A stretch of 14,301 nucleotides of DNA, taken from NCBI RefSeq assembly GCF_003334405.1, contig NZ_QOWM01000030.1; one strand, written 5' to 3'. Both the position numbers and the translations under genes were made by a program. The stretch is from Escherichia coli. GTDB taxonomy: Bacteria; Pseudomonadota; Gammaproteobacteria; Enterobacterales; Enterobacteriaceae. The notes beneath the pieces were generated by a model, which saw only the letters and a program-made list of their open reading frames with translations, ran no database searches and was not told the origin of the DNA. Positions 1 to 13,994 of the stretch are shown one piece after another (the first letter of the stretch is position 1; every line of letters begins with the position of its first letter).

Positions 1-1146
1 GCGCCAACCTGTGGCCTGTGCTGTAGCAATTTGAAGCTCACCAGATCCTACCTTTCTCCAGGTACCGGATTGGCACGAAAGTATTGCCCCTGTATTATCG
101 CGGCCTACAAGGCCGTTAGGCGAACATGATGCGCCAGCAACGGCAGTTCTTTCCAGTTGTAAGTATTCACCAGTATAAAGGCGACCATCAGCCCGAACAG
201 TACCGCCTTTCACCTGACCGCCGGTATAGATGCCCTTGTTGTTTACACTTCGAACCCATGATCCATCGGACATATAAAATCCGCCACCGTGAGTTTCATT
301 GAGCCAGCCTTTACTGTTACGAGTAATTAACCAACCATTATTACTTCTGATATCACCGCCAGCGGTGACATTTACGTCAAAGTTTCCGCTATTGCCTTTT
401 ACCTGACCGCTGAAAGTGCCATTTACACCATTCACATTGCCGCTGAAATTACCTGTCTGGGCATTTACTGCCCCAACGTTATTCAGGTTATTTGATCCCA
501 TATCAATGGCCGTGTGCATTTTGTTTAAGTCAGGGCGACCATTGACCTGGAATCTGTAAAGACGATCAGTGTCCTCAGCTGCACCACTAAGTTCATCTGT
601 CGATAACAATACGGCAATATGCCCGTTACCGCTTTTGGCACCATAATTACTTAAAGCTACTGACCAGGAACGTAATGCACCTGTGGCTGTTTTGCCGTCC
701 TGGATATATCCACCAAGACCAGTGGTAATATCCTTAGCCATCTGGATAAGTGCTTTCACTGGATAAGGGGTGCCACCACTGGATACAACCATTGCCTGTA
801 GTAATTCCGGGTTTTGGGCGTTTCGAACCACATATGCCTGTAACCGCTGCCCCTCACTGTTTGTCTCAGTAAACCCGCCGGACAAAAAGCCGGTATTTTT
901 CAGCATGGTTGTCGTGATGACGGCAGGGGTTGTTGTGGTACTACTGGTCTGGAGAGTCGTGTAGTTTTTCCCTATATAAGAGCGGGCCGCACTGGTCCAG
1001 TTGCTGACAAGACGTGCTTCAGTTTGCCACCCTTTGGTTTGAATATAGTCCTGCCATATGCCCGCTCCCCAGGCAATCAGGAGCATAACAATCAATAAAG
1101 CCGCGCCAGTTTCCAGCGATGCCCAGCCTCGGTCATATTTTTTCAT
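1..1146 (-). CDS. pilV: Type IV prepilin-like minor pilin/adhesin PilV, N-terminal constant region; 3' end lies beyond the window edge
   Basis: I translated the minus strand in this frame by hand at both ends (1146 to about 300, and 300 to 1) with no stop; the track omits it because it has no stop in-window. N-terminus MKKYDRG|[19 protein letters not shown] is a short-leader type IV prepilin signature (Gly at -1, Glu at +5, then a hydrophobic helix). The ATG at 1146-1144 overlaps the pilU stop (ATGA). Two Cys near the visible C-terminus (ASCSPNG...AILSCQSG). Last gene of a pilL-V array. Confidence 0.8.
58..76 (-). other. Candidate shufflon sfx 19-bp site-specific recombination site (minus strand GTGCCAATCCGGTACCTGG) inside the 3' part of pilV
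   Basis: The exact 19-mer is read directly and encodes S-C-Q-S-G-T-W at about PilV residues 357-363. It matches my recollection of the conserved 19-bp repeat bounding invertible shufflon segments in IncI plasmids (Rci recombinase target). Only one copy is visible because the window ends 57 bp further on. Confidence 0.5.
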
Positions 1147-1802
1147 CAGATTACCCATAGTGGTTGATAAAGATTATCCAGCAGCAAAAGGACATGGCCA
1201 AAACATAGCCATGGACCCAGAGGGCCTTCTTTATGCCCTTTTATGCACCATGTTGAATGCCATAAGACAAATCCTCCTGTACCCAGCAACACACACCATA
1301 TGGCGTTATATAACCCTGACCATGCGGTAATACCTGCAATAAGCCACAGGTCTCCAGTGCCAATATTAAGACGATGGCGGTTAACTAATTTATGAAGGCA
1401 GAATAAGACAATTGCAGCAGTGGCAAATTCTGTTGTACGGAACCACCATATATCAGTCGTGATTTGTGATAGCATTCCTGCAATTAAAAAACGCCGGGTG
1501 AATGTTCCTGGTAATAAACCTGTCAGTGCATCCGTTACCGCCATTTGCAGTATGAACGAAAGAATAAGGACAGCATGAATACGGTAGAGCAGTGGTGATG
1601 ATGATAAAATAATTAACGCCACAGCTATACTGTATAGCCATATTCCTGACAGAACAGCAGGGTGTGTCTTATACCAGAGATGTCCCGTATCAGATAAAAA
1701 ATAACGAACTCTGAATAGCAGAGTTCGTCCAATAATGGAAAATGTGAACATCAATGGCAGTATATAAACAGGGGATAGACTTATGCCTACGATTGTCTGC
1801 AT
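1146..1802 (-). CDS. pilU: Prepilin peptidase (A24-type, type IV prepilin leader peptidase)
   Basis: Polytopic membrane protein with two Asp-containing motifs (AVTDALTG and IGTGDLWL) like the catalytic Asp pair of prepilin peptidases. I prefer the ATG at 1802 (218 aa), which has AGGGAGG 6 nt upstream, over the track start at 1829, which lacks a usable RBS. Either start overlaps the pilT 3' end. Confidence 0.8.
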
Positions 1803-2347
1803 TGCCTGCCTCCCTGTCCGGGAAGACATATCCCTTTCATGTCACGATAAATTCTCCATATTTTATTGGCATATTGCTCTCTTGTTTCATGTCTGTCCTT
1901 ACGGAATCCGGCATTGTATGACCCAAGGCAATTCCAGCTGACGCCACATATCTGAAAATGTCTTGCCAGTATCCAGCTTCCTATATGGATATTAAGGCAT
2001 GGTTTGGTGATTAAATCCTCAGACTTTTTTATTACGCCCATGTTTATCAGCTTTGGAATATGGGTTGAGTTTATTTGCATCAACCCATAATCCGTGCTAC
2101 TGGCTTTACCTGTTTTTTTGTCCTTATTTATATTAATTGCGCCCGGCCTCAACGAAGATTCCCCGGCAGAAATAGCCTTCAATAATAATGGTTCAATTTG
2201 ATAGCGCGCGCCGGCAGCGGCAAAGCAATTGTCCCACTTGTTGGTCCAGATCTGTTTGGGGGCTACGTATGAAGCTCGGGCGGGTGGAATAAGAGAAAAA
2301 AGCAGGATTAACAAAATAAGTCTGAGGGGTACTGTACCCCCTGACAT
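1787..2347 (-). CDS. pilT: Secreted lytic transglycosylase (SLT domain)
   Basis: N-terminal signal peptide (MSGGTVPLRLILLILLFSLIPPARA), catalytic-type AGESS motif and DYGLMQIN motif characteristic of SLT lytic transglycosylases. AGGAG RBS 6 nt upstream of the ATG at 2347. Confidence 0.8.
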   Translation of the reverse strand: MSGGTVPLRLILLILLFSLIPPARASYVAPKQIWTNKWDNCFAAAGARYQIEPLLLKAISAGESSLRPGAININKDKKTGKASSTDYGLMQINSTHIPKLINMGVIKKSEDLITKPCLNIHIGSWILARHFQICGVSWNCLGSYNAGFRKDRHETREQYANKIWRIYRDMKGICLPGQGGRQCRQS

Positions 2348-2356
2348 TAAAACTCC

Positions 2357-2971
2357 TTAACCATTGATGGTGAAGATAAGTTTGTTTGTACCAGTGCTGC
2401 CATTATCTGCCTTGCATTGCGTACTGGCTTCTTCAGTAGTGACTTTTCCATCACTGTGAGCAGTACTGTTCAGGGTAATGCCGTTAGTTAAACCAGTTTT
2501 ACTGATCCGTGTGGCAATCTGGATACAGGCATCCTGTGGGACTTTATCATAGGTAACGGTAAAACCGTTGTTGAACCCTGATGTTGAAGCCGGGGCAACA
2601 GTTACAGCACCGCCCCATGCGTTATAGAGCGTTGCTGTACCAGATGTTTTGTCGCCCTGTACTGTCATCCCAGAGGGAACGGCCCCCATCTGAATGAGGG
2701 CACCTGTCATTTTGGCACTGCTGGTAAATGTATATCCATCGCTACCTTTTAGCAGGCTCTGGGCACTTGTGATAATTGTTTGTATATTTGCGGTTTCAGT
2801 TGCCACATTGGTTCTTGTACGTAACGCATACAAACTACCCAGAACAACGACTATAACAAAAAGAACAACGAGCGCTATTGTTCCCTGCTCCAAAATTCCC
2901 CATCCTTTATCATGAGGCTCATTCTTCTTATTATTTCCAGTTAAAGTGGCATTAATATTTTCTACTAACAT
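2357..2971 (-). CDS. pilS: Type IVb major prepilin with long leader peptide
   Basis: 23-aa hydrophilic leader ending DKG, then W-G-I-L-E (Glu at +5) and a hydrophobic helix TIALVVLFVIVVVLGSLYAL; two C-terminal Cys (QDACIQ...STQCKADNG) typical of a pilin disulfide loop. GAGGA RBS 5 nt upstream. Confidence 0.8.
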   Translation of the reverse strand: MLVENINATLTGNNKKNEPHDKGWGILEQGTIALVVLFVIVVVLGSLYALRTRTNVATETANIQTIITSAQSLLKGSDGYTFTSSAKMTGALIQMGAVPSGMTVQGDKTSGTATLYNAWGGAVTVAPASTSGFNNGFTVTYDKVPQDACIQIATRISKTGLTNGITLNSTAHSDGKVTTEEASTQCKADNGSTGTNKLIFTING

Positions 2972-2988
2972 AAATATCCTCGTTTTGT

Positions 2989-4086
2989 TTAAAAGTTACC
3001 CATGCTGTTGTCACTAATAGACTGAATATCCATAATGGCAAAAACCAGTAACATGAGAGACATGACAAGAAATATCAGCATAATTAAACGAATCACGTTT
3101 GCCCGTTTCTTTACACGTTGAAGTGTTTGACTAAGCCATCGTTGACCATAATTGCTGATTAGCTCTGTTGCGCCATCTCCCTGTAATAAAGACAGGAAGT
3201 TGGCTGCTTCCCTGGATGGGAACTGATAACCGCACTGACGCAAAGCCAGTCCAAGATGATCCCCCTGGCGGACGCGGTAAATAATGCTGTCAAGACGCGT
3301 GCTTAACCATGGTGATGCAAACTCCTGAAGAATGTTTAGTGAGTTGAGCGTCGTCATTTTGGCTTTCAGAAGTGCAGCCATATTCAGGAGAAATGTTGCT
3401 CCCTGTATATCCTGATAAATACTCCATGGCATTATCTTGTCGGCAAAAGTACGAACACTGTCAGGGCTTTTCCAGTTTGGCAGAGACCATGATATTAAAC
3501 CTGTGATCACTGCAAAAAGAACGGCACATATAGCGCCGTAATTATCGACAAAAACAGATAATCCATAAAGAAAACCAAGAGCACCACTCCATGAATCGGG
3601 GGAACTTATTTTGCTCAGTTCAGGTATTAGCTCTGTATTCAGAACATATAATGTCCCCGTCATCATGATTAACAATCCCACCGGATAAATAGCCATTTGC
3701 CATATAGCCTGATGGATTTGTTCTTTTGCATCTGTAAGAGTGGTGGCGAATTGCAGTGCATCCACAATTGAACCACTTCTTATCCCGGCGCTGATTACTG
3801 CGGCCTCTTCCTGAGGAACCCATAAACTAAGAGTATATTCCAGAGAGTTTTCGCCACTGTTTTCACGAAGAGACTCAATGCAGTCTGTGGCCAGTTCAGC
3901 AAAGGGATGCCATTTTCGTCCAAAGTCTGTCCAGGCATCCCGCATCTGTTCCAGTGCGGTCTTTAATGGCTGTTTATTTTCCAGCAGAAAACGCAGGGCT
4001 TCGTAAAACTGCACCCTGTAGGGGGCGCTGAACGTTTTTCTGACAATGAAACGCCTCAGCCGTTGACTGAAATTCATTTCACGCAT
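2989..4086 (-). CDS. pilR: Inner-membrane platform protein of type IV pilus/T2SS (GspF/PilC family)
   Basis: 365-aa polytopic membrane protein located directly downstream of the GspE-like ATPase, as in type IV pilus operons. Family assignment rests on position, size and hydropathy rather than a sharp motif. Confidence 0.75.
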   Translation of the reverse strand: MREMNFSQRLRRFIVRKTFSAPYRVQFYEALRFLLENKQPLKTALEQMRDAWTDFGRKWHPFAELATDCIESLRENSGENSLEYTLSLWVPQEEAAVISAGIRSGSIVDALQFATTLTDAKEQIHQAIWQMAIYPVGLLIMMTGTLYVLNTELIPELSKISSPDSWSGALGFLYGLSVFVDNYGAICAVLFAVITGLISWSLPNWKSPDSVRTFADKIMPWSIYQDIQGATFLLNMAALLKAKMTTLNSLNILQEFASPWLSTRLDSIIYRVRQGDHLGLALRQCGYQFPSREAANFLSLLQGDGATELISNYGQRWLSQTLQRVKKRANVIRLIMLIFLVMSLMLLVFAIMDIQSISDNSMGNF

Positions 4087-4098
4087 GTTGTTCTCCTG

Positions 4099-5652
4099 TT
4101 AGACATCATCGATGCTGAGGCGCTCGTCTTCGTCCAGAGGGATGATTCTGTCGGCTTCAAGAGGGTCTACCAGACCTTCATTGATACGGCGAAGAAGATG
4201 CTCTACACGACTGATGCCTTTCATGTTTTCCAGCCAGTATTTACGTGCTGCAACTTTGCCGCGTGTTTTCAGAATCTGAAATAAGCGGTTATCAGGTTCT
4301 ATCACCTCAGCAATTACAGTCCTGCCGGTGAGGCCTTTACCTATTTCACCGCGCTTTCTGCCGTTAATGATTACGTCGTGATTACATTCAGAGCATCCGT
4401 GAGGATTTCGGAACCAGATATTATCTGTACTGCAGAGTGAATCTTTATTGCAGTGCCGCTCAAGGTAATCACGCTCGTCGTCGCTAAGTTCAGGTGCTCG
4501 CGTTTCCCATGGAATACGGCAGGAGGGACACAGAGTTGGTACAAGGCGCTGGCTGATCATCCCAATCAGTAATTGCGCATCGCAAATAAGATCGGCATTC
4601 ATACCCATCGTAATCATCCGCTCCGGTATACCCAGAGCTGAGTTTGTATGTAATGTCGTCAGAACTATGTGCCCGGTCTGTGCCGCGTAGGTGGTTGACA
4701 TCATCGAGATAAGATCGCGCATTTCCCCTTCCATGATGGCATCAGGGTCAAGTCGCATTGCCGATGAAATAGCCCGACTCCATGCCAGTTTGACGGCATC
4801 TTCGTCGGATTTGTCGCAGATAATCGGAGTCTGTGTTGCTCCCAGTATCTGTCCTTCCAGCGGATCTTCGATTGTTAGCAGGTGTCGCCCCTGATTATCG
4901 TCAAGATATACACGGCAGGCGCTGCGTAACGTTGTCGATTTACCGGAACCGGTTGGACCTGACAGGACTATTTTTCCTTCCGGGCGGCGCAGCATTATGT
5001 TCAGCAACCGGATTTGTTCCGGGATAAAGCCCAGTTGTTTAAACGTGGGAACTTTATCTCCGTCATCGGGTATCAGGCGCATAACTGCAATCAGACCGTC
5101 TCCCGTAGGTCTGTGACTGTAGCGTGCACCAAATATTCCTATTTTTCGCATTAATTGTGGGGACAGGCGCGCATCCTGTTCCCTTTGAGGGAAGAAACTG
5201 GTTTCAGTGACATCAGCCATTGACAGAATGGCTGTTGCGCAAAGTGAATAGCCCAGTGCTGGTTGATCTTCATCTACAGTCTGCAGTTCACCGAATATTC
5301 TCATGCGAACTTTGAAAATAGACTCAGAAATTAAAAAATGAATATCTGAAGCACCAAGTTTTCTGGCCGTTTCAAAATAAGATAGAACTTTCTTCTCACT
5401 TTCACTGACATCAGCAAGATCTTTCAGATGAATAATTCGTTCTTTCGGGCCTCTGTTTTTTTCATCCTGACCTGCTTCCTGTAACTCCGACAACGAGACT
5501 ACTTTTGGGTTGATGCCCGGATATAATTTTAGCAGTTCCTGGAGATTACTTTGTACGTCAGGCCTTGTCCGCTGGTTTGTTTCTATAAGAATTTCATGGG
5601 TGTCTCCCCGGGATATAAAAAGGAGAGCATCCTTCAGATTATATTTATCCAT
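4099..5652 (-). CDS. pilQ: Type IV pilus assembly ATPase (GspE/PilB family secretion NTPase)
   Basis: Walker A LSGPTGSGKSTTL, His-box-like TLHTNSALG, and a tetracysteine motif CPSC...CSEC typical of GspE-family ATPases; 517 aa. Confidence 0.85.
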   Translation of the reverse strand: MDKYNLKDALLFISRGDTHEILIETNQRTRPDVQSNLQELLKLYPGINPKVVSLSELQEAGQDEKNRGPKERIIHLKDLADVSESEKKVLSYFETARKLGASDIHFLISESIFKVRMRIFGELQTVDEDQPALGYSLCATAILSMADVTETSFFPQREQDARLSPQLMRKIGIFGARYSHRPTGDGLIAVMRLIPDDGDKVPTFKQLGFIPEQIRLLNIMLRRPEGKIVLSGPTGSGKSTTLRSACRVYLDDNQGRHLLTIEDPLEGQILGATQTPIICDKSDEDAVKLAWSRAISSAMRLDPDAIMEGEMRDLISMMSTTYAAQTGHIVLTTLHTNSALGIPERMITMGMNADLICDAQLLIGMISQRLVPTLCPSCRIPWETRAPELSDDERDYLERHCNKDSLCSTDNIWFRNPHGCSECNHDVIINGRKRGEIGKGLTGRTVIAEVIEPDNRLFQILKTRGKVAARKYWLENMKGISRVEHLLRRINEGLVDPLEADRIIPLDEDERLSIDDV

Positions 5653-5662
5653 ATCACGTTAC

Positions 5663-6115
5663 TCAGAAAGTAAGGGTAGTGCCATCACTTAACGTGACGC
5701 CAGACAATGAGATCGACTTCACCGTGACGGATGTACCTGGAAGCTGGCTGCCAGTGGTGACGCTTGTCTGACGTCCATCAGCCATGCGAAGAACGGCATG
5801 AAGACGTTTATCTTTGCCGTTTATTTCCATAATGATGGGCAATTCTTTTCTGTTTTTCGGTGCCGTTTTCTCTGAAACTGATGGCAAGGGGGCGGTCACA
5901 CCAGAGAAACCTGAAACAGTTTCAGATGATGAAGTAACATCTGATTCTTCAAGTTGTTTCTGTAACTGTGCACCCTGAACTTTTGCCTGTAAAAGAATAT
6001 TCCGGTTTTGTTGTGCTTCAAGTTCTCCTATTGTGACAAGAGGTTGTGTTGTGGCAAATGAAAAACCAGAGAAGAAAAATATGGAAGGAATAATGAGTAA
6101 TTTACTTGGACGCAT
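5663..6115 (-). CDS. pilP: Pilus assembly protein PilP (secreted/periplasmic, function unknown)
   Basis: 150-aa ORF with N-terminal signal peptide (MRPSKLLIIPSIFFFSGFSFA); its start overlaps the pilO 3' end by 14 nt; position in the operon. Confidence 0.65.
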   Translation of the reverse strand: MRPSKLLIIPSIFFFSGFSFATTQPLVTIGELEAQQNRNILLQAKVQGAQLQKQLEESDVTSSSETVSGFSGVTAPLPSVSEKTAPKNRKELPIIMEINGKDKRLHAVLRMADGRQTSVTTGSQLPGTSVTVKSISLSGVTLSDGTTLTF

Positions 6116-7397
6116 ATATATGACCTTCTGAGGAATAACTGAAAGTACCGCCGTTTAATTCAAAATGGATATTGCTCAGACGGACGCCGGTATCCTGAAG
6201 TAAAGGGAAAAATTCATCAGGATTTACAGGAGTTGATAAACTGAACTGATATTCTTTCCATTTCTGAACAGGGGCTGGTTCACCATCGTTGCCTGGTAAT
6301 GGCTCCGGTATGGCTATTTCATTAATGGCCGGTGTTAACTGTTTTTTCTGAAACCACGTGAACACCCGCATCAGTTGTTCTGAGGGGGCCGGGACAGCCT
6401 CGTCCCTGCCGGGCAGGGACGGCAGTGGACGGGTTACAGAAACCTGGCGTGCACCATCTTTAAGGTTAAAGTCAGGAATAACACCAAAGATTTCTTTACT
6501 TCTTGCCAGAAAACCCTCAATGGTTCCTCCAGGCTGTCGTTCGTAAATCAGTGTGAATGTCTCAGGAGTACATGTTCCACCGGTAAGTTTCCAGCCTTCC
6601 AGTGCGACCGGTGACGGTTTTCGAAGGTCCGCGCAGGCTTTCAGAAAATCACTGATTACAGGTTGTGATGCCCATGGATGCGGGAGTTCTGGCGGTGGAT
6701 CGGGCTTTTTAAACTGCAATCTTGCCCGTGCAGCTATCTCCTCGGGCGTCGGTACGACATCCGGCTCTGGCTGAGTCATCCAGAATACAGTGCCTGCGCC
6801 GGCTGCTACTAAAAACAGTACGGCAGGCAGTGTGAATTTGCTGCGATTGCCGACAGTAAGTTTGCAACGGCGGAGATCTGCTGATGATAACCGGGTAATA
6901 ATACTTTCCCAGTTATCAGGATGTTCCAGAGACGATACAACCTGCCATTTTTCGGGGGGCTCTTCGTTCATCGCCAGAAAAAGGCTGACCTTTTGGGCAA
7001 CGTCGGCATCATTTCCTGATAAGTCAGCCATAACGGCAGGCTGGCCATTAATGGAAGCAAGGAATAAGAGCTCCTTATCGCTGTACCGGAAGACACCGTA
7101 TCCATTTCTGACCCATGAGCAGAAAGCCAGTGCCAGGGAAAAATAATGATTGCGTTCTGGCCTGGTCAGTATTCCTGTGCCGGTAAGGCGGCTGATCTTT
7201 CCACGGGAATTTCTGCTGCCTACAGTCACTTTCAGGGAGGTAAGCCGTCTGGGTTTTACATGAGACTTGTGTTTATGATGTGAGGGGACGCGCTGTTTTT
7301 TTACGACAGGAGTCCATTTAAGACAGGCAGCCCACACGCGATGATTTACTTTAGGATCTGCGAGAAGCACTACCGGGTTGATATCTTCATCAGCCAT
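6102..7397 (-). CDS. pilO: Pilus assembly protein PilO (function unknown)
   Basis: 431-aa ORF with AGGAGG RBS 6 nt upstream of the ATG at 7397; start overlaps the pilN stop by 8 nt; one internal hydrophobic segment (LPAVLFLVAAGAGTVFWM). Assignment by operon position and size. Confidence 0.7.
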   Translation of the reverse strand: MADEDINPVVLLADPKVNHRVWAACLKWTPVVKKQRVPSHHKHKSHVKPRRLTSLKVTVGSRNSRGKISRLTGTGILTRPERNHYFSLALAFCSWVRNGYGVFRYSDKELLFLASINGQPAVMADLSGNDADVAQKVSLFLAMNEEPPEKWQVVSSLEHPDNWESIITRLSSADLRRCKLTVGNRSKFTLPAVLFLVAAGAGTVFWMTQPEPDVVPTPEEIAARARLQFKKPDPPPELPHPWASQPVISDFLKACADLRKPSPVALEGWKLTGGTCTPETFTLIYERQPGGTIEGFLARSKEIFGVIPDFNLKDGARQVSVTRPLPSLPGRDEAVPAPSEQLMRVFTWFQKKQLTPAINEIAIPEPLPGNDGEPAPVQKWKEYQFSLSTPVNPDEFFPLLQDTGVRLSNIHFELNGGTFSYSSEGHIYASK

Positions 7398-9072
7398 TAT
7401 TGCCTCCTGACGGGAAAGTCGGGGTAATGATGATCACAAGTGTGCTGCGTTCATTTTTCCCGGTTTGTGAACCACCAAATAATGGATTTGCTGGCGTAAA
7501 CGTACCGGCTTTACTTGTCGTCGTATTGTTCTGATCGAAACCAGTAACGACAAGTGATTGCCCTTCTTTCAGATTGACCTTCTGGCTCAGTGAACGCAGT
7601 TTGGTATATGGCATTTCGATGTAACTGTTTCCGTCTTTTGACGTAAAGCTACGGATAGTTGGGGGATCAGACAGATTAAAGTTCATCTGCAACTGGAGAT
7701 TGCCTGTTTTCTGAATTAAAGGCAGCAGGGTCATATTGAATCCAGTGGTGATCATGCCCGGTGTTAATGTTGTTGTTGCTCCTACATCCGTAGTCGTAGT
7801 TGTTGCTGACTGGGCGACGTAAACTGTCTGATCTGCCATCTGGATAGGTACCGGCGTCAGGTTTGTGACAGTGCTTTCTTGTGAAGTTACAACGCTGACA
7901 TCGCCCTGTTCACTCAGTGCTTTAATCAGAAGGCTGGAACCGCTGAATTTGGCGGCATTCCCTGTTGCCGTATCCAGAATTGATACGCCTGCAGATGTAG
8001 CGCCTGTAAAATCTCCGCTTGCATTGTTCAACGTTGCTCCGGCGGAATGTAGCGATTTGTAAACAAGGTTCCAGTCCAGACCGAACTGCTCGTTTCTGGT
8101 ATTGCTGACGCTCAGAACCTGTACGTTCAGGGCTACCTGGCGGTTCATAATACTGTTTTGTTCGTCCACATATCGTGCGACGGCTTCCTGGACAGCAGGA
8201 GTATCAGTGACTGTCAGCGTTGAGCTCGATGCAGATAACCAGTAACGGCCTTTTTCTGGTGTCAGCATCGCTTCAATAGTTTTCCGGATGTCTTCATACA
8301 GGTCGTATTCCTGACCGACGGTTGTGCTCTGAGAGGACGTAGCATCACCGGATGCTGAGTTATCCTGGCCTCCTGTTGCCCCCATTGTGCTTGTTGAGCC
8401 AGAGCTGACGCTGGAACTGCTGCTGGTTTTGGTGTTCAGCATATGAAGTGGATACGTTCTGGTTTCAGTCAGATAGAATACAATCCGACCATTATCCATG
8501 CGCCAGTACAGACCGCTTCGGCTGGCCATCAGATCCAGAAGACCATTGATATCTCCCTGCCACATGAGGTTATTCAGCGTTAATGGCTGAGTGGAGGTAG
8601 TCATTGTTGTGCTGCCCAGGCTGCTTAACGGCAGACGACCATTTTCATCAGGTGCTGGTAGTGTCCCAGTCATCTGGCGGGTAGCGCCTCCTTCAAGAGT
8701 TGAATTGGCTGCGTCAGGGGTGATGATTACGGGGATGCCGCATACGGCAGTAATACGTTGCCCCAGTTCCTGTAGAGTGATCTCTCCTTTTCTTGCCTGC
8801 GTGATGTAGCAGGCCGGAGCTGTTTGTTTTTTCTCTCTTGATACCTGAGCGACCGGAACGGGGTTTATCCATTGATTATCGAGCCAGGTAAGAGCCTGTG
8901 ATTTGCGGGCAGAAAGGGCTGATACCTTTTCCCGTGCATGTGCTGAGTCTTCCTGTGCTTTTTTCTGCATTTTATTGATTTCGCTGAAAGTACATCCGGA
9001 GATGGAAAGAGCGACGGCGATCATGCAGGGGAGCACCGCCAGCTTCATTGAACGCTGGTGTGATTTTTTCAT
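7390..9072 (-). CDS. pilN: Secretin-family outer-membrane lipoprotein
   Basis: Lipoprotein signal with lipobox (AVALSISGC), C-terminal secretin-like region (...SLVVTGFDQNNTTTSKAGTFTPANPLFGGSQTGKNERSTLVIIITPT) and an internal Ser/Thr-rich linker; 560 aa. Start could alternatively be the internal Met at 9048. Confidence 0.75.
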   Translation of the reverse strand: MKKSHQRSMKLAVLPCMIAVALSISGCTFSEINKMQKKAQEDSAHAREKVSALSARKSQALTWLDNQWINPVPVAQVSREKKQTAPACYITQARKGEITLQELGQRITAVCGIPVIITPDAANSTLEGGATRQMTGTLPAPDENGRLPLSSLGSTTMTTSTQPLTLNNLMWQGDINGLLDLMASRSGLYWRMDNGRIVFYLTETRTYPLHMLNTKTSSSSSVSSGSTSTMGATGGQDNSASGDATSSQSTTVGQEYDLYEDIRKTIEAMLTPEKGRYWLSASSSTLTVTDTPAVQEAVARYVDEQNSIMNRQVALNVQVLSVSNTRNEQFGLDWNLVYKSLHSAGATLNNASGDFTGATSAGVSILDTATGNAAKFSGSSLLIKALSEQGDVSVVTSQESTVTNLTPVPIQMADQTVYVAQSATTTTTDVGATTTLTPGMITTGFNMTLLPLIQKTGNLQLQMNFNLSDPPTIRSFTSKDGNSYIEMPYTKLRSLSQKVNLKEGQSLVVTGFDQNNTTTSKAGTFTPANPLFGGSQTGKNERSTLVIIITPTFPSGGNNG

Positions 9073-9085
9073 GAATATATCCAGA

Positions 9086-9523
9086 TTAGTTAACGTAGAC
9101 GACAGAACCAGCAGTAATGCCTGCCGGGGGTGTCAGACCGGTTGCAGTTCCTGATAGCCAGGTGAGTTGCCCGTTTTGGAAGATCCCTATTAGTGCAGAA
9201 CCACGACTTTTTGAACGCAAAGTTTCAACAAGTCCTGGTTGTTCAGGCATCCATACCCACAGACGTCCCTGTTGTAACTGATGTTTAATTCGGGAGTCCG
9301 GAGTGACAGGGAGAGCCAGTTTATCTGAAGAAATTACTCCGTCCTGCTGGCCTGATACGTATCTGATATCATTGATTCTGTTAGCAATCATTAGTATCTG
9401 ACTTGCCCATACAGACGCACTTGCATATTGCTGGGCGTTCGTGGTTTCAGACATCTGCTGATTCTGGTAGCTTCCAGTGATAATCAGAATGGTCAGGCCG
9501 ACGGCCATGACCAGCCATCCCAT
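9086..9523 (-). CDS. pilM: Pilus assembly protein PilM (small membrane-anchored protein)
   Basis: 145-aa ORF with an N-terminal transmembrane segment (MGWLVMAVGLTILIITG); its start codon overlaps the pilL stop (TAATG at 9521-9525). Confidence 0.65.
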   Translation of the reverse strand: MGWLVMAVGLTILIITGSYQNQQMSETTNAQQYASASVWASQILMIANRINDIRYVSGQQDGVISSDKLALPVTPDSRIKHQLQQGRLWVWMPEQPGLVETLRSKSRGSALIGIFQNGQLTWLSGTATGLTPPAGITAGSVVYVN

Positions 9524-10590
9524 TAGCGACCATCCCTTGTATCAGAAACTGTAATGATGCACTGCATGCGAGAAGCCTGTGCGTATAAAGGTTTTTGCGC
9601 AGTCCGATATAACTCAAATACCTGCTCCATGGCTGATTCAAATGATCCCCGGAACATTAAAGGCGCATCCAGACGGTAATCGGTTACAGAAAGTGGCCAT
9701 ATGACCATCCAGTGCGTTGATGCCATGCTTTCGCATTTTGTTTCTTCTGCCCACTTGATAATGTTCTCTCTTAATGTGGTGCCTGCCGGCGCACGCCACT
9801 CTTTACCCTGAGATACCGGTTTAACAGGCGTTCCGGTCATGAGCGGGATAGACTTGACTGTGGAGCCGGTTGGAGTCGGGGTGGTGGCGGGCGTTGACGA
9901 AGATACGTTGTTTCCCCTGAATGGATTTCGTGGTTTGTTCTGGCTATTTGCTGTCGTTGGAGATTCAGGGGTAGTGGATGTGGTTACCATGGCTGCTGGC
10001 GAGATAGTGGTTGCCGTGTCCTGTGTCGGTGCAGCAGCTGATGTTGTGACGGTCAACGTTTTATTATCCCAGTCCAGATGGCCCCAGAGGTGTTGTTCTT
10101 CCAGCAACCGGTTCAGAGAACGGGTCCACTGATCATTGGCAGACCATGAAACCAGTTTGGTATTCAGCTTGGGCGTGGCTGCATTCTCTTGTCTGAATTT
10201 CCATCCTTCCGGTAGTAATGTTTTTATCCACTGACTGACGGTCCGGTTACGGGCCGTCGGCGATAGTGTTACAGGGGCGCTACCAGGCTTGCCTGTAATG
10301 ATTAACCGGGAGAAATTCTGACTTATTGTTGGTGAAGGTAACGGTCGGGATTCGCTAACAGGCTGTGCTGTTTTTACTGTCTCTGGCACGCTGACTCTCG
10401 GGGGCGGAGTTATTTTAGGTGGAGAAAGACGTTGTTGCGTAAGTGCCAGAACGCCAGCACTCTCACTGATTTGTCCGTCAACAAAAACCAGAGCAGGCGT
10501 ATCTGATGGTGCCACGTTATTACTGCCGGAAATTCCGGCACAGCCGGATAATAATGATGGCAGTATAAGTGTCAGATAGTTTTTTTTCAT
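9523..10590 (-). CDS. pilL: Pilus assembly lipoprotein PilL
   Basis: Lipoprotein signal with lipobox (LPSLLSGCAG); 355 aa; Pro-rich then Ser/Thr/Pro-rich low-complexity segment (residues about 181-258); GGAG RBS 8 nt upstream of the ATG at 10590. Confidence 0.7.
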   Translation of the reverse strand: MKKNYLTLILPSLLSGCAGISGSNNVAPSDTPALVFVDGQISESAGVLALTQQRLSPPKITPPPRVSVPETVKTAQPVSESRPLPSPTISQNFSRLIITGKPGSAPVTLSPTARNRTVSQWIKTLLPEGWKFRQENAATPKLNTKLVSWSANDQWTRSLNRLLEEQHLWGHLDWDNKTLTVTTSAAAPTQDTATTISPAAMVTTSTTPESPTTANSQNKPRNPFRGNNVSSSTPATTPTPTGSTVKSIPLMTGTPVKPVSQGKEWRAPAGTTLRENIIKWAEETKCESMASTHWMVIWPLSVTDYRLDAPLMFRGSFESAMEQVFELYRTAQKPLYAQASRMQCIITVSDTRDGR

Positions 10591-10623
10591 AACGGAGACT
10601 CCGTGTTCGTATATACGTGTTTG

Positions 10624-11214
10624 TTAATTGGTGTGAGGCGGCTGGAGAGGACGAATGACGACTGTCATTCCGTCCGAATGCAAATGCGGGAGAGACCACT
10701 GAAATAAGAGATATACAAAAGGAATTGATAATCTTTCATACAGACTTGTTTTCCGTGGGCATGTAATAACAGAGAAATTCAAACCATAAGATTCCAGTCT
10801 CTTTATAAGTTTATTTATTCTTGCAGGAGTAAAGAGATGTGAATGCATAACAATGGTTTCATCATTATTAATTGCTTTTGATATCAGAGAAAGTAACACA
10901 TCCCAGTGTTTCCTCATTGACTCCGGGCAACGTGTATCGGCATAGGGGCTAAGATGTATGCTTGATTCTTTACTGCCTTTTTTTTTCGTAAAGAATGTGA
11001 AGTTGTATTTAGATACAGACCTTACGATAAGAAGTACGCATCTGAAAAGTAGTGGGGAAAAGCAAATAATAACCACTATACAGAAATATAATATATAAGA
11101 TAGTGATATGTGGTCAGTGTATAGATAACGGAAGTATTGCCACGGGGTAGTGATGTACAGGCAAAAAGTACACCAAAGTAACCATAGATATAATGGTACG
11201 TTATTATTTTTCAT
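10624..11214 (-). CDS. pilK: Hypothetical membrane protein (two N-terminal TM helices plus soluble domain), possibly PilK-like
   Basis: 196-aa ORF immediately upstream of pilL on the same strand; its ATG overlaps the stop of the preceding ORF (ATGA at 11211-11214). Strongly AT-rich compared with the flanking pil genes. The pilK name is inferred only from position and size. Confidence 0.45.
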   Translation of the reverse strand: MKNNNVPLYLWLLWCTFCLYITTPWQYFRYLYTDHISLSYILYFCIVVIICFSPLLFRCVLLIVRSVSKYNFTFFTKKKGSKESSIHLSPYADTRCPESMRKHWDVLLSLISKAINNDETIVMHSHLFTPARINKLIKRLESYGLNFSVITCPRKTSLYERLSIPFVYLLFQWSLPHLHSDGMTVVIRPLQPPHTN

Positions 11215-11507
11215 ATTAGTTGACTTTTAATACTGTTTTCTATCACCACATTTTTATGTGTCTCATTTGGCACTTCGTACTGTTGGAAATATTGTTGGCG
11301 GCGGATGCGTGTCTGTTCACTGCTTTCTATTAACACCGCCATGGCGATTGCAAAGTATATGCAAATCAGGAAAATCCAGAACGCGTTTGGTATCTTCCAA
11401 AAAAGTGTGGACAGTTTGTTATGTGGTGAAACTAAAATCGGAGAAAGGATTCCACAGACAATCACAATAGCGATGGTTAATTTAACTAGAAAGAACATGG
11501 TAAACAT
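11211..11507 (-). CDS. pilJ: Hypothetical small membrane protein (two predicted TM helices), possibly PilJ-like
   Basis: I prefer the ATG at 11507 (98 aa, MFTMFFLVKLTIAIVIVCGI...), which has GGAG 7 nt upstream; the track start at 11564 is a TTG with no RBS. AT-rich. Translationally coupled to the downstream pilK-like ORF. Confidence 0.4.
   Translation of the reverse strand: MFTMFFLVKLTIAIVIVCGILSPILVSPHNKLSTLFWKIPNAFWIFLICIYFAIAMAVLIESSEQTRIRRQQYFQQYEVPNETHKNVVIENSIKSQLI
11453..11500. repeat. 48-bp direct repeat, copy A (inside the 5' coding region of the pilJ-like ORF)
   Basis: cacagacaatcacaatagcgatggttaatttaactagaaagaacatgg matches copy B at 11595-11642 at 44 of 48 positions, offset 142 bp. 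Confidence 0.8.
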
Positions 11508-11594
11508 CGTTAATCTCCATGATAAAAGGGAGAGAGGTAATAAAGAAAATAAAGATGGCAACAAACGGCTAAATTAAAATCGTTAAAAGGTGTA

Positions 11595-11642
11595 CACAGA
11601 CAATCGCAATCGCGATGGTTAATTTAACTAAAAAGAACACGG
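11595..11642. repeat. 48-bp direct repeat, copy B (intergenic, upstream of the pilJ-like ORF)
   Basis: cacagacaatcgcaatcgcgatggttaatttaactaaaaagaacacgg; similarity to copy A extends weakly a further ~12 bp to the left. On the minus strand it would encode a degenerate copy of the pilJ-like N-terminal helix (VFFLVKLTIAIAIVCV) without the ATG. Confidence 0.8.
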
Positions 11643-11682
11643 CCCCCACCCGTTTTGACGAGGTCTTTTGTTTTTGTTGTGT

Positions 11683-11937
11683 TTACGACAGCCAGTCCTG
11701 TAGATGCTGATGGCGGGAGCTGCTGCCCTTGTGCCAGCGGCAGTGGCTGCCGGGAGCACGCTCCAGTCGGAACAGAAATCGGTTGTCGCGTAGTACCACC
11801 ACGATACAGTTATCCGGCGTGCAGAAACGTCGGGCAAGCTCATCGGGGTCTGTCGGTGTTTTCGTTGAAAACAGCCTGCGTTTGCAGTGTGCGTCGACGA
11901 CCAGTATTTGCAGTCGTCCGGGATGTTGCTGTGGCAT
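11683..11937 (-). CDS. Hypothetical small protein (84 aa), Cys/His-containing, GC-rich; possibly PilI-like
   Basis: Internal ATG at 11937 is preceded by GGAAGGAG with a 6-nt spacer, a much better start than the track ATG at 11982. The ORF is GC-rich, unlike the adjacent AT-rich block. No recognisable domain. Confidence 0.4.
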   Translation of the reverse strand: MPQQHPGRLQILVVDAHCKRRLFSTKTPTDPDELARRFCTPDNCIVVVLRDNRFLFRLERAPGSHCRWHKGSSSRHQHLQDWLS

Positions 11938-12108
11938 CAAAGACTCCTTCCGGAACGGGAAAAGAAGCAGCTGTACCGTCATAACTGCACGTACCGGTTG
12001 CGAAAAAACGGCACAAGCGAGTAGTGACAGAAAGAATGTCGGAAACGGCAGGAAGGGCGGTACAGGCTGCGAAGACTGGAAACGGGGTATGCCGGGGATT
12101 ACACATCC

Positions 12109-13600: not shown

Positions 13601-13994
13601 AACCGATCCATGATGGACGATTTTGCGATGTCAGGCGAATATGCTAAATCATATGTCTGAAGCAGTGTCCAGCCCATATCTGGATAAACTGCAGTTCTGA
13701 CAGGCATATAACCAGCAGACTCTAGTACGTTCTGTATCGGTGATTTGGCGAACTCACAGATAAAGAACGGCTAAGCACTAATATCAGCAATACAGTGGCA
13801 CAGTATTGTGATACGCGAAATAAAACATCAGCACGTCAGTTCAGAGTAAGGTCGCCATATATCGGGCATGAGCCAGATACAAATAACTGGGACACCGTCT
13901 GAAGTGATTTGCTTTATTAAAGTAACTTGTGCTTGGTGTTTATGTTTATCAATTTGGGATCGCCTGTAAAGTGCAAAATGCAATTTCCATGAAA

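Follow-up and report, generated by a model that had tools for sequence, protein, structure and literature searches.

The Gly-Trp...Glu cleavage signature common to the PilS and PilV prepilins of a probable IncI1 thin-pilus operon

The window analysed here, a stretch of 14,301 nucleotides of Escherichia coli DNA, carries on its minus strand the genes pilS, pilT, pilU and pilV, which very probably represent the corresponding block of an operon for the thin pilus (a type IVb pilus) on a conjugative plasmid of the IncI1 (R64) type. The genes and the elements of the two cleavage sites are located as follows.

2357..2971, minus strand: pilS, major type IVb prepilin of 204 aa (ORF; Pfam PilS, PF08805)
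2903..2971, minus strand: PilS leader peptide MLVENINATLTGNNKKNEPHDKG, 23 codons, the last being Gly(-1) at 2903-2905 (translation)
2888..2902, minus strand: codons 1-5 of mature PilS, W-G-I-L-E, with Trp(+1) at 2900-2902 and Glu(+5) at 2888-2890 (translation)
1787..2347, minus strand: pilT, lytic transglycosylase, between pilS and pilU (Pfam SLT, PF01464, E 6e-24; RefSeq)
1146..1802, minus strand: pilU, prepilin peptidase of 218 aa (RefSeq annotation; Pfam Peptidase_A24)
1..1146, minus strand: pilV, minor pilin and shufflon adhesin, incomplete at the left edge of the window (Pfam Shufflon_N, PF04917)
1126..1146, minus strand: PilV leader peptide MKKYDRG, 7 codons (translation, RefSeq start)
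1111..1125, minus strand: codons 1-5 of mature PilV, W-A-S-L-E, with Trp(+1) at 1123-1125 and Glu(+5) at 1111-1113 (translation)

The window showed 99% identity or more to 779 plasmids of the IncI1 type, and R64, for which NC_005014 was used in place of AP005147, matched it with 98% DNA identity over positions 57-11223. Gene order and RefSeq gene names agreed with the pil operon of R64, the prototype of the conjugative type IVb thin pilus, which was characterised between 1997 and 2005 (Kim and Komano, 1997; also Horiuchi and Komano, 1998; Yoshida et al., 1998; Akahane et al., 2005). Plus-strand ORFs within 1125-2971 were rejected as genes, being short, lying wholly inside annotated minus-strand genes and in no case annotated themselves.

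PilS was identical to R64 PilS at 198 of 204 residues (97%). Its residues 55-203 matched the PilS family (PF08805, E 5e-38), and residues 55-204 matched the solved structure of Salmonella Typhi PilS (1Q5F, E 6.5e-47). The ATG at 2971 is preceded at a distance of 5 nt by the Shine-Dalgarno sequence GAGGA, and no alternative start codon was found inside the leader, whose length of 23 aa recurred in 45 of 79 PilS homologues. The prepilin reads MLVENINATLTGNNKKNEPHDKG↓WGILE, the arrow marking the cleavage site, and has the layout of a class III signal peptide: a hydrophilic leader ending in ...HDKG is followed by about 20 mainly hydrophobic residues with Glu at +5 (WGILEQGTIALVVLFVIVVVLGSLYAL). 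The precursor has a calculated mass of 21.2 kDa, falling to 18.7 kDa once the 23 aa are removed, in agreement with the prepilin of 22 kDa and the pilin of 19 kDa reportedly described in 1998 by Yoshida and co-workers, who are also reported to have found an N-terminal modification of PilS. For R64 PilS, cleavage after Gly(-1) and a need for Asp residues of PilU have been reported (Berry and Pelicic, 2015).

The prepilin encoded by pilV reads MKKYDRG↓WASLE and is built in the same way, with a hydrophilic leader ending in ...YDRG, about 20 mainly hydrophobic residues behind the cleavage site and Glu at +5. Residues 33-361 matched the full-length profile of the shufflon PilV adhesin (PF04917, E 4e-186). 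Only two differences from R64 PilV were present in residues 1-363, and the two proteins diverged from residue 364 onwards. The window contains the constant N-terminal region of pilV followed by the switchable C-terminus; the shufflon junction lies at about 57-76, and positions 1-76 map to a different R64 shufflon segment. Glu5 has been lost from PilV in many relatives. Searching by sequence brought up no solved structure for PilV, nor one for a full-length pilus filament of the R64 type.

The ATG of pilV (1146-1144) overlaps the TGA stop codon of pilU (1148-1146) by one base, and RefSeq assigns the same start, and hence a 7-aa leader, on a 99.6%-identical plasmid. Translation from a second in-frame ATG, at 1158, would lengthen the leader to 11 aa, and the equivalent upstream ATG serves as start in one or more database entries for a close homologue (P0095). 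The pilU/pilV stop/start overlap recurs across related loci and favors the 7-aa version, with 11 aa possible. The translations bear out the leaders of 23 and 7 aa in the original prediction, and both prepilins do carry Gly(-1), Trp(+1) and Glu(+5), as it had claimed. When all six frames of the window were scanned for G-x4-[ED] with a hydrophobic stretch behind it, only the PilS and PilV sites lay near an ORF start and led into a true transmembrane-like helix.

The same prediction had placed the A24-type peptidase gene pilU between pilS and pilV. It does lie there, in the same operon, but so does pilT, which had been omitted; pilT overlaps pilU by 16 nt, and its product showed a single difference from R64 PilT. 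PilU, for which the RefSeq length of 218 aa was taken rather than the mechanical ORF of 227 aa, was 100% identical to R64 PilU. Its sole Pfam match was to Peptidase_A24 (PF01478, E 6.5e-7), and both Asp91 and the GxGD motif G148-x-G150-D151 were invariant in 14 locus-encoded homologues. By its domain and these two conserved, predicted catalytic Asp residues, PilU is classified as an A24 prepilin peptidase; Berry and Pelicic (2015) credit the two Asp residues to Akahane et al. (2005). PilU gave no match to the Cys-rich N-methyltransferase domain of bifunctional PilD-type enzymes (PF06750/IPR010627) and contains no CxxC pairs, and the methylase domain was likewise absent from all 14 aligned homologues. 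On the basis of motif and homology, PilU is predicted to cleave PilV at G7↓W8.

That Trp(+1) is unusual could be confirmed insofar as both sites depart from the G↓F/M-T-L-I-E motif, and neither PilS nor PilV matched the canonical N-methylation site with Phe or Met at +1 (Pfam N_methyl, PF07963), which distant relatives with G↓FTLIE do match. In NCBIfam, no family was matched by PilS, PilU or PilV. Trp(+1) was present in 69 of the 79 close PilS homologues, that is, those with a recognisable cleavage motif. In the wider PilS family, represented by 128 sequences at the 50%-identity level, it was confined to roughly 10, most of which were the nearest relatives, and Phe was commonest. Trp(+1) as a trait of the whole PilS family was thus rejected; it marks the R64-like sub-clade alone. 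It persisted in both PilS and PilV down to about 45-50% identity. Conservation around the site was confined to the final three residues of the leader, (D/H)(K/R)G, the Trp and a small residue at +2.

A genome scan seeded with a narrow PilS alignment yielded 14 loci, all from Enterobacterales, and a word-indexed search with the PilV N-terminus yielded 22 proteins. In 15 of the 19 related loci that were tabulated, PilS and PilV agreed at +1 (W/W in 12, F/F in 3), whereas random pairing gave a mean of 9.8 (P about 0.001 by permutation, with the relatedness of the loci ignored). The remaining four showed V/I, M/F and, in two Salmonella loci, W/F, the M/F pair belonging to a Typhi-like locus; sharing of the +1 residue is therefore not absolute. 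With four further I-complex plasmids (A/V, M/F, I/I and A/V) the residue was the same in 16 of 23 loci. The residues at -3 and -2, too, usually matched between PilS and PilV of one locus. Judged from these comparisons, chance alone does not account for Trp(+1) in both proteins.

The pathway may be pictured as follows, on the basis of what is established for type IV pilins. The major pilin PilS and the minor pilin PilV, whose C-terminus is switched by the shufflon, would enter the inner membrane by means of their class III signal peptides, with the short charged leader remaining in the cytoplasm. The operon's A24 aspartyl peptidase PilU would cleave behind Gly(-1) and expose Trp(+1), after which the hydrophobic helix with Glu(+5) would drive filament assembly and PilV would act as the adhesin recognising the recipient. 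By comparison of the loci, Trp(+1), (D/H)(K/R)G at -3 to -1 and the small residue at +2 make up a clade-specific version of the cleavage site, which the two substrates of one locus would have in common because they evolve in concert with one peptidase and one assembly machinery. The lack of a methyltransferase domain in PilU would fit a non-canonical +1 residue that is probably not N-methylated by the peptidase. For R64 PilS, Gly(-1) was reported to be critical and Glu5 to be needed for assembly but dispensable for processing (Berry and Pelicic, 2015, citing Horiuchi and Komano, 1998).

The original prediction had read the different leader lengths as a sign of differential handling by one peptidase. 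On such a reading, PilU or the assembly platform would treat a substrate with a long leader differently from one with a short leader; cleavage rates or entry order, for example, could differ and let the tip adhesin prime the filament. The PilS leader was indeed longer than that of PilV in 21 of the 23 loci examined, which hints at some constraint outside our main explanation, and the reviews consulted leave the function of the long leaders of type IVb major pilins unexplained. Yet across the 19 tabulated loci the difference ranged from +16 to -10, and the lengths (8-32 aa in PilS, 7-18 aa in PilV) were uncorrelated (Spearman rho -0.25, P 0.31). The two lengths differ by anything from 0 to about 20 residues, a figure inflated by several ambiguous PilS start codons, and the leader sequence is poorly conserved except for its last three residues. 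Moreover, shortening of the R64 PilS leader is reported to do no harm (Berry and Pelicic, 2015, citing Horiuchi and Komano, 1998). Differential handling is thus unsupported and in our view very unlikely; most likely, the lengths differ because the leader is a loosely constrained sequence that carries no signal for separate handling. That Trp(+1) is common to both prepilins by mere coincidence, or that a wrong PilV start voids the leader comparison, is hardly credible. The ATG at 1158 and the homologue entry with the equivalent start speak for a wrong start, but the conserved pilU/pilV overlap argues against it, and even a leader of 11 aa would be only half as long as that of PilS and would leave the cleavage motif unaltered; coincidence is opposed by the retention of Trp(+1) in both proteins at the identities given above.

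An extension of the co-evolution argument would be that (D/H)(K/R)G↓W(G/A) and a PilU devoid of methyltransferase insulate the plasmid pilins from host peptidases and the host pilins from PilU, in which case both substrates would have to keep Trp(+1). Where a locus encodes a short A24 peptidase of its own, the residues at +1 are non-canonical (W, V/I, M/F, A/V, I), two related loci without a peptidase gene at this place have the canonical G↓FTL(I/V)E and match Pfam N_methyl, and the methylase domain is missing in 14 of 14 aligned PilU homologues. This is, however, a mere correlation among few, phylogenetically related loci, of which about 5 kb per side was inspected, so that a peptidase gene could sit elsewhere. 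Many prepilin peptidases are promiscuous (Berry and Pelicic, 2015), and the occurrence of PilV with Phe(+1) alongside PilS with Trp(+1) in the Salmonella loci implies that PilU-type enzymes accept more than Trp. We therefore consider such insulation unlikely. Its combination with a real kinetic role of the longer major-pilin leader, which may for instance hold back the cleavage of PilS and so allow PilV to prime the filament, appears distinctly improbable, and the literature consulted describes neither part for the R64 family.

The preferred reading, a clade-specific cleavage site common to both substrates of one peptidase, is an ordinary one. The Gly-Trp...Glu signature of PilS and PilV is real but already known: a G↓W site had been predicted in one PilS homologue, and Trp is named in the literature among the +1 residues of type IVb pilins, so that neither point is new. 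Cleavage sites, peptidase and the requirement for them are textbook features of R64 to which the window adds nothing. The modest gain is comparative only, namely that the flank from -3 to +1 is usually common to both substrates of a locus, that PilV often lacks Glu5, as expected for a tip subunit, and that leader length varies freely. IncI1 plasmids rank among the main vehicles of ESBL and other resistance genes, and their thin pilus decides mating in liquid and in the gut, which makes the processing of PilS and PilV relevant to conjugation inhibitors.

Compared with known systems, the block has the same genes in the same order, the same cleavage motifs and an identical PilU as the thin pilus of R64 and ColIb-P9 (IncI1). 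It differs from R64 in the residue at +2 of PilS, which is Ala in R64 (WAILE) and Gly here (WGILE), in the shufflon segment joined to pilV, and in the absence of traD and the 3' part of pilJ upstream; these differences leave the signature unaffected. The type IVb pilus of Salmonella Typhi SPI-7 has the same pilS-pilT-pilU-pilV order and a PilS with a homologous globular domain (PDB 1Q5F, 3FHU, 3FHV). In the Typhi-like locus, the PilS site is DRG↓MSADAG, with Met at +1 and no Glu5, and the PilV site is DGG↓FVAMS, so the signature is not universal even among close relatives. The IncI2 pilus (TP114, R721; PMC9045228) follows the same plan, in that its major pilin PilS is made with a long leader and PilV with one of 7 aa, and it possesses a short A24 peptidase of its own as well as a shufflon, but its sites, DKG↓ATLME in PilS and DKG↓VSLLE in PilV, lack Trp. 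The Vibrio cholerae TCP (TcpA/TcpB/TcpJ) and the CFA/III of ETEC (CofA/CofB) also combine a long-leader major pilin with an assembly-initiating minor pilin at the tip and an operon-encoded A24 peptidase, whereas their pilins belong to other families and have other +1 residues. Peptidases of the TcpJ type are bifunctional, in contrast to PilU with its protease domain alone. TadV of the Tad/Flp (type IVc) systems is, like PilU, a prepilin peptidase without a methylase domain, but it acts on very short Flp pilins carrying a G↓xxxxEY motif, and the machinery is unrelated to PilN/O/P/Q/R.

An ORF scan places all long ORFs of the window on the minus strand, in one operon. The features considered here are the following, where a slash within an amino acid sequence marks the predicted cleavage site.

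2357-2971, minus strand: pilS (Pfam PF08805), N-terminus MLVENINATLTGNNKKNEPHDKG/WGILEQGTIALVVLFVIVVVLG
between pilS and pilU, minus strand: pilT (Pfam SLT)
1146-1802, minus strand: pilU (Pfam Peptidase_A24), A24 domain alone, without methyltransferase domain
1146-1144, minus strand: start ATG of pilV (Pfam Shufflon_N, PF04917), N-terminus MKKYDRG/ followed by Trp(+1); one base common to the pilU stop codon
57-11223: pilV-pilU-pilT-pilS-pilR-pilQ-pilP-pilO-pilN-pilM-pilL-pilK, collinear with R64

The translated N-termini of PilS and PilV both contain Gly(-1), Trp(+1) and Glu(+5), as stated in the original prediction, and the ORFs and start codons confirmed its leader lengths of 23 aa (PilS) and 7 aa (PilV). 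It had also placed pilU between the prepilin genes, where it is indeed found, but not alone, as pilT is located there too. The pilS ATG at 2971 is preceded by GAGGA 5 nt upstream, and the leader contains no other start codon. For PilV, the start at 1146-1144 is also used by RefSeq; with the in-frame ATG at 1158 as start the leader would have 11 aa, and at least one database record of a close homologue begins at the corresponding upstream ATG. The 7-aa leader is favoured because the overlap of pilU stop and pilV start is conserved in relatives. PilU comprises 218 aa, the mechanical ORF 227 aa. Scanning the window in six frames revealed no further class III signal that was convincing. The gene block is tightly coupled in translation, with pilT and pilU overlapping by 16 nt (1787-1802) and pilU and pilV by one base at 1146 (TGATG).

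The window encodes the thin pilus of R64 itself rather than a variant of it. Positions 57-11223 are 98.1% identical to and collinear with R64 (NC_005014), and 779 plasmids (from Escherichia, Salmonella, Shigella and Klebsiella; type IncI1/B/O with MPF_I) match the first 4.1 kb at 99% identity or more. PilU is identical to R64 PilU (218/218 residues), PilT has one difference, PilS six over 204 residues, and PilV two within residues 1-363. The globular domain of PilS matches the solved structure 1Q5F (S. Typhi PilS); a sequence search found no solved PilV structure, and an NCBIfam search of PilS, PilV and PilU returned no family. From residue 364 on, PilV no longer follows the R64 reference, which means that this plasmid copy has another C-terminal adhesin segment joined to it. 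The shufflon junction lies at about 57-76: window 1-76 corresponds to 13657-13732 of the R64 locus L026 and 57 onward to L026 15125 onward, the 20-bp overlap of both matches presumably being the sfx recombination site. The pilK-traC interval (11214-12101) is also unlike R64 (identity 87-90% vs 98-99% elsewhere): the 3' part of pilJ (L026 26291-26514) and all of traD (L026 27349-27915) are missing, a 72-nt direct repeat (85% identical) occupies 11429-11500 and 11571-11642, and the pilJ-like ORF (11211-11564) encodes 117 aa compared to 150 aa in R64.

Both Trp as a type IVb +1 residue and the PilS G/W site were already known from the literature. Of 93 PilS homologues, 79 had a recognisable cleavage site, with Trp(+1) in 69, down to about 45% identity. 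Their leaders end in His or Pro, Asp or His, Lys or Arg, and Gly, and +2 is Gly or Ala; upstream of these last residues the leader is barely conserved. Among 128 representatives of the wider family (50% identity), Phe was the commonest +1 residue and Trp occurred in roughly 10, mostly the nearest sequences, which bears out that Trp(+1) is unusual and marks the R64-like sub-clade.

Loci with both genes were collected by a genome scan, from contigs encoding diverse PilS or PilV and from other plasmid groups, and both N-termini were read in each of 23 loci (19 tabulated plus four further plasmids). PilS and PilV shared the +1 residue in 15 of the 19 (Trp in 12, Phe in three); the unmatched PilS-PilV pairs were Val-Ile, Met-Phe and, in two loci, Trp-Phe. 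Random pairing gave a mean of 9.8 matches (permutation P ~0.001, uncorrected for phylogeny), and the common Trp(+1) is more than chance. The further plasmids had Ala-Val (IncI2), Met-Phe, Ile-Ile (IncK2/Z) and Ala-Val. Residues -3 and -2 mostly agree too (HRG with HRG, DRG with DRG, DKG with DNG). Such agreement is expected if both pilins are substrates of a single peptidase encoded between them. Two loci without a peptidase gene in the pilU position have the canonical motif G/FTL(I or V)E. Two Salmonella loci have an extra gene without Pfam match between pilT and pilU (185-192 aa; L023 2590-3168, L024 5194-5751), and a metagenomic locus has one between pilS and pilT (129 aa; L019 5705-6094).

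The original prediction had further taken the different leader lengths as a sign that PilS and PilV are handled differently. Although the longer leader belongs to PilS in 21 of the 23 loci, this is improbable and the inference lacks support, since in the tabulated loci the lengths (PilS 8-32 aa, PilV 7-18 aa) are uncorrelated, the gap between them varies from +16 to -10, and the R64 PilS leader tolerates shortening without adverse effects, according to Berry and Pelicic (PMC4471445, citing Horiuchi & Komano, 1998). In its other points the prediction reads a known system correctly. The same authors describe Gly(-1) as absolutely critical in R64 PilS and Glu5 as needed for assembly and dispensable for cleavage (citing Horiuchi & Komano, 1998). 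Of the 19 tabulated loci, 18 keep Glu or Asp at this position in PilS. PilV Glu(+5) (1111-1113) is kept in the R64 type, and position +5 is Ser, Gly, Asp or without acidic residue in many related loci (compared were L009-L016, L020, L023, L024 and L030). Loss of Glu5 from PilV fits the rule that a tip-capping subunit is without it.

By analogy with type IV pilin biology, the leaders would remain cytoplasmic while the hydrophobic helix crosses the inner membrane, and PilU, as a putative aspartyl protease (Asp91, G-x-G-D151), would cleave after Gly(-1). The PilQ ATPase and PilR platform might then polymerise the mature subunits, which would exit via the PilN secretin, and the shufflon-selected C-terminus of PilV may recognise the recipient. 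PilU and 13 aligned locus-encoded homologues (all about 190-225 aa, A24-only, without methyltransferase domain) share invariant W55, D91, L97, P98, T102, G109, G148, G150, D151, W161 and P197; two peptidase Asp residues are required, as stated in PMC4471445 (citing Akahane, 2005). The Pfam N_methyl profile matched neither PilS nor PilV and PilU is protease-only, therefore N-methylation by the peptidase is not expected. Yoshida et al. (1998) reportedly found that a prepilin of 22 kDa is processed to a pilin of 19 kDa whose N-terminus is modified; for PilS, calculation gives 21.2 kDa (precursor) and 18.7 kDa (processed).

Tad-type peptidases, like PilU, consist of the protease domain only. A Typhi-like Salmonella locus (L016) differs in its PilS (5001-5594; DRG/MSADAGATA), which has Met(+1) and Asp at +4 and is without Glu5; its pilV (about 6730 onward; MMKHKHDGG/FVAMS) lies downstream of pilS. 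The source record has no gene call for this pilV, and the shufflon is the probable cause. In the IncK2/Z plasmid pZ1323HSL0038-3 (L029; 1231-1836, 2980-4428), whose peptidase has only 191 aa, both pilins carry the acidic residue at +2, not +5 (PilS HRG/IEMLS, PilV ARG/IDLIG).
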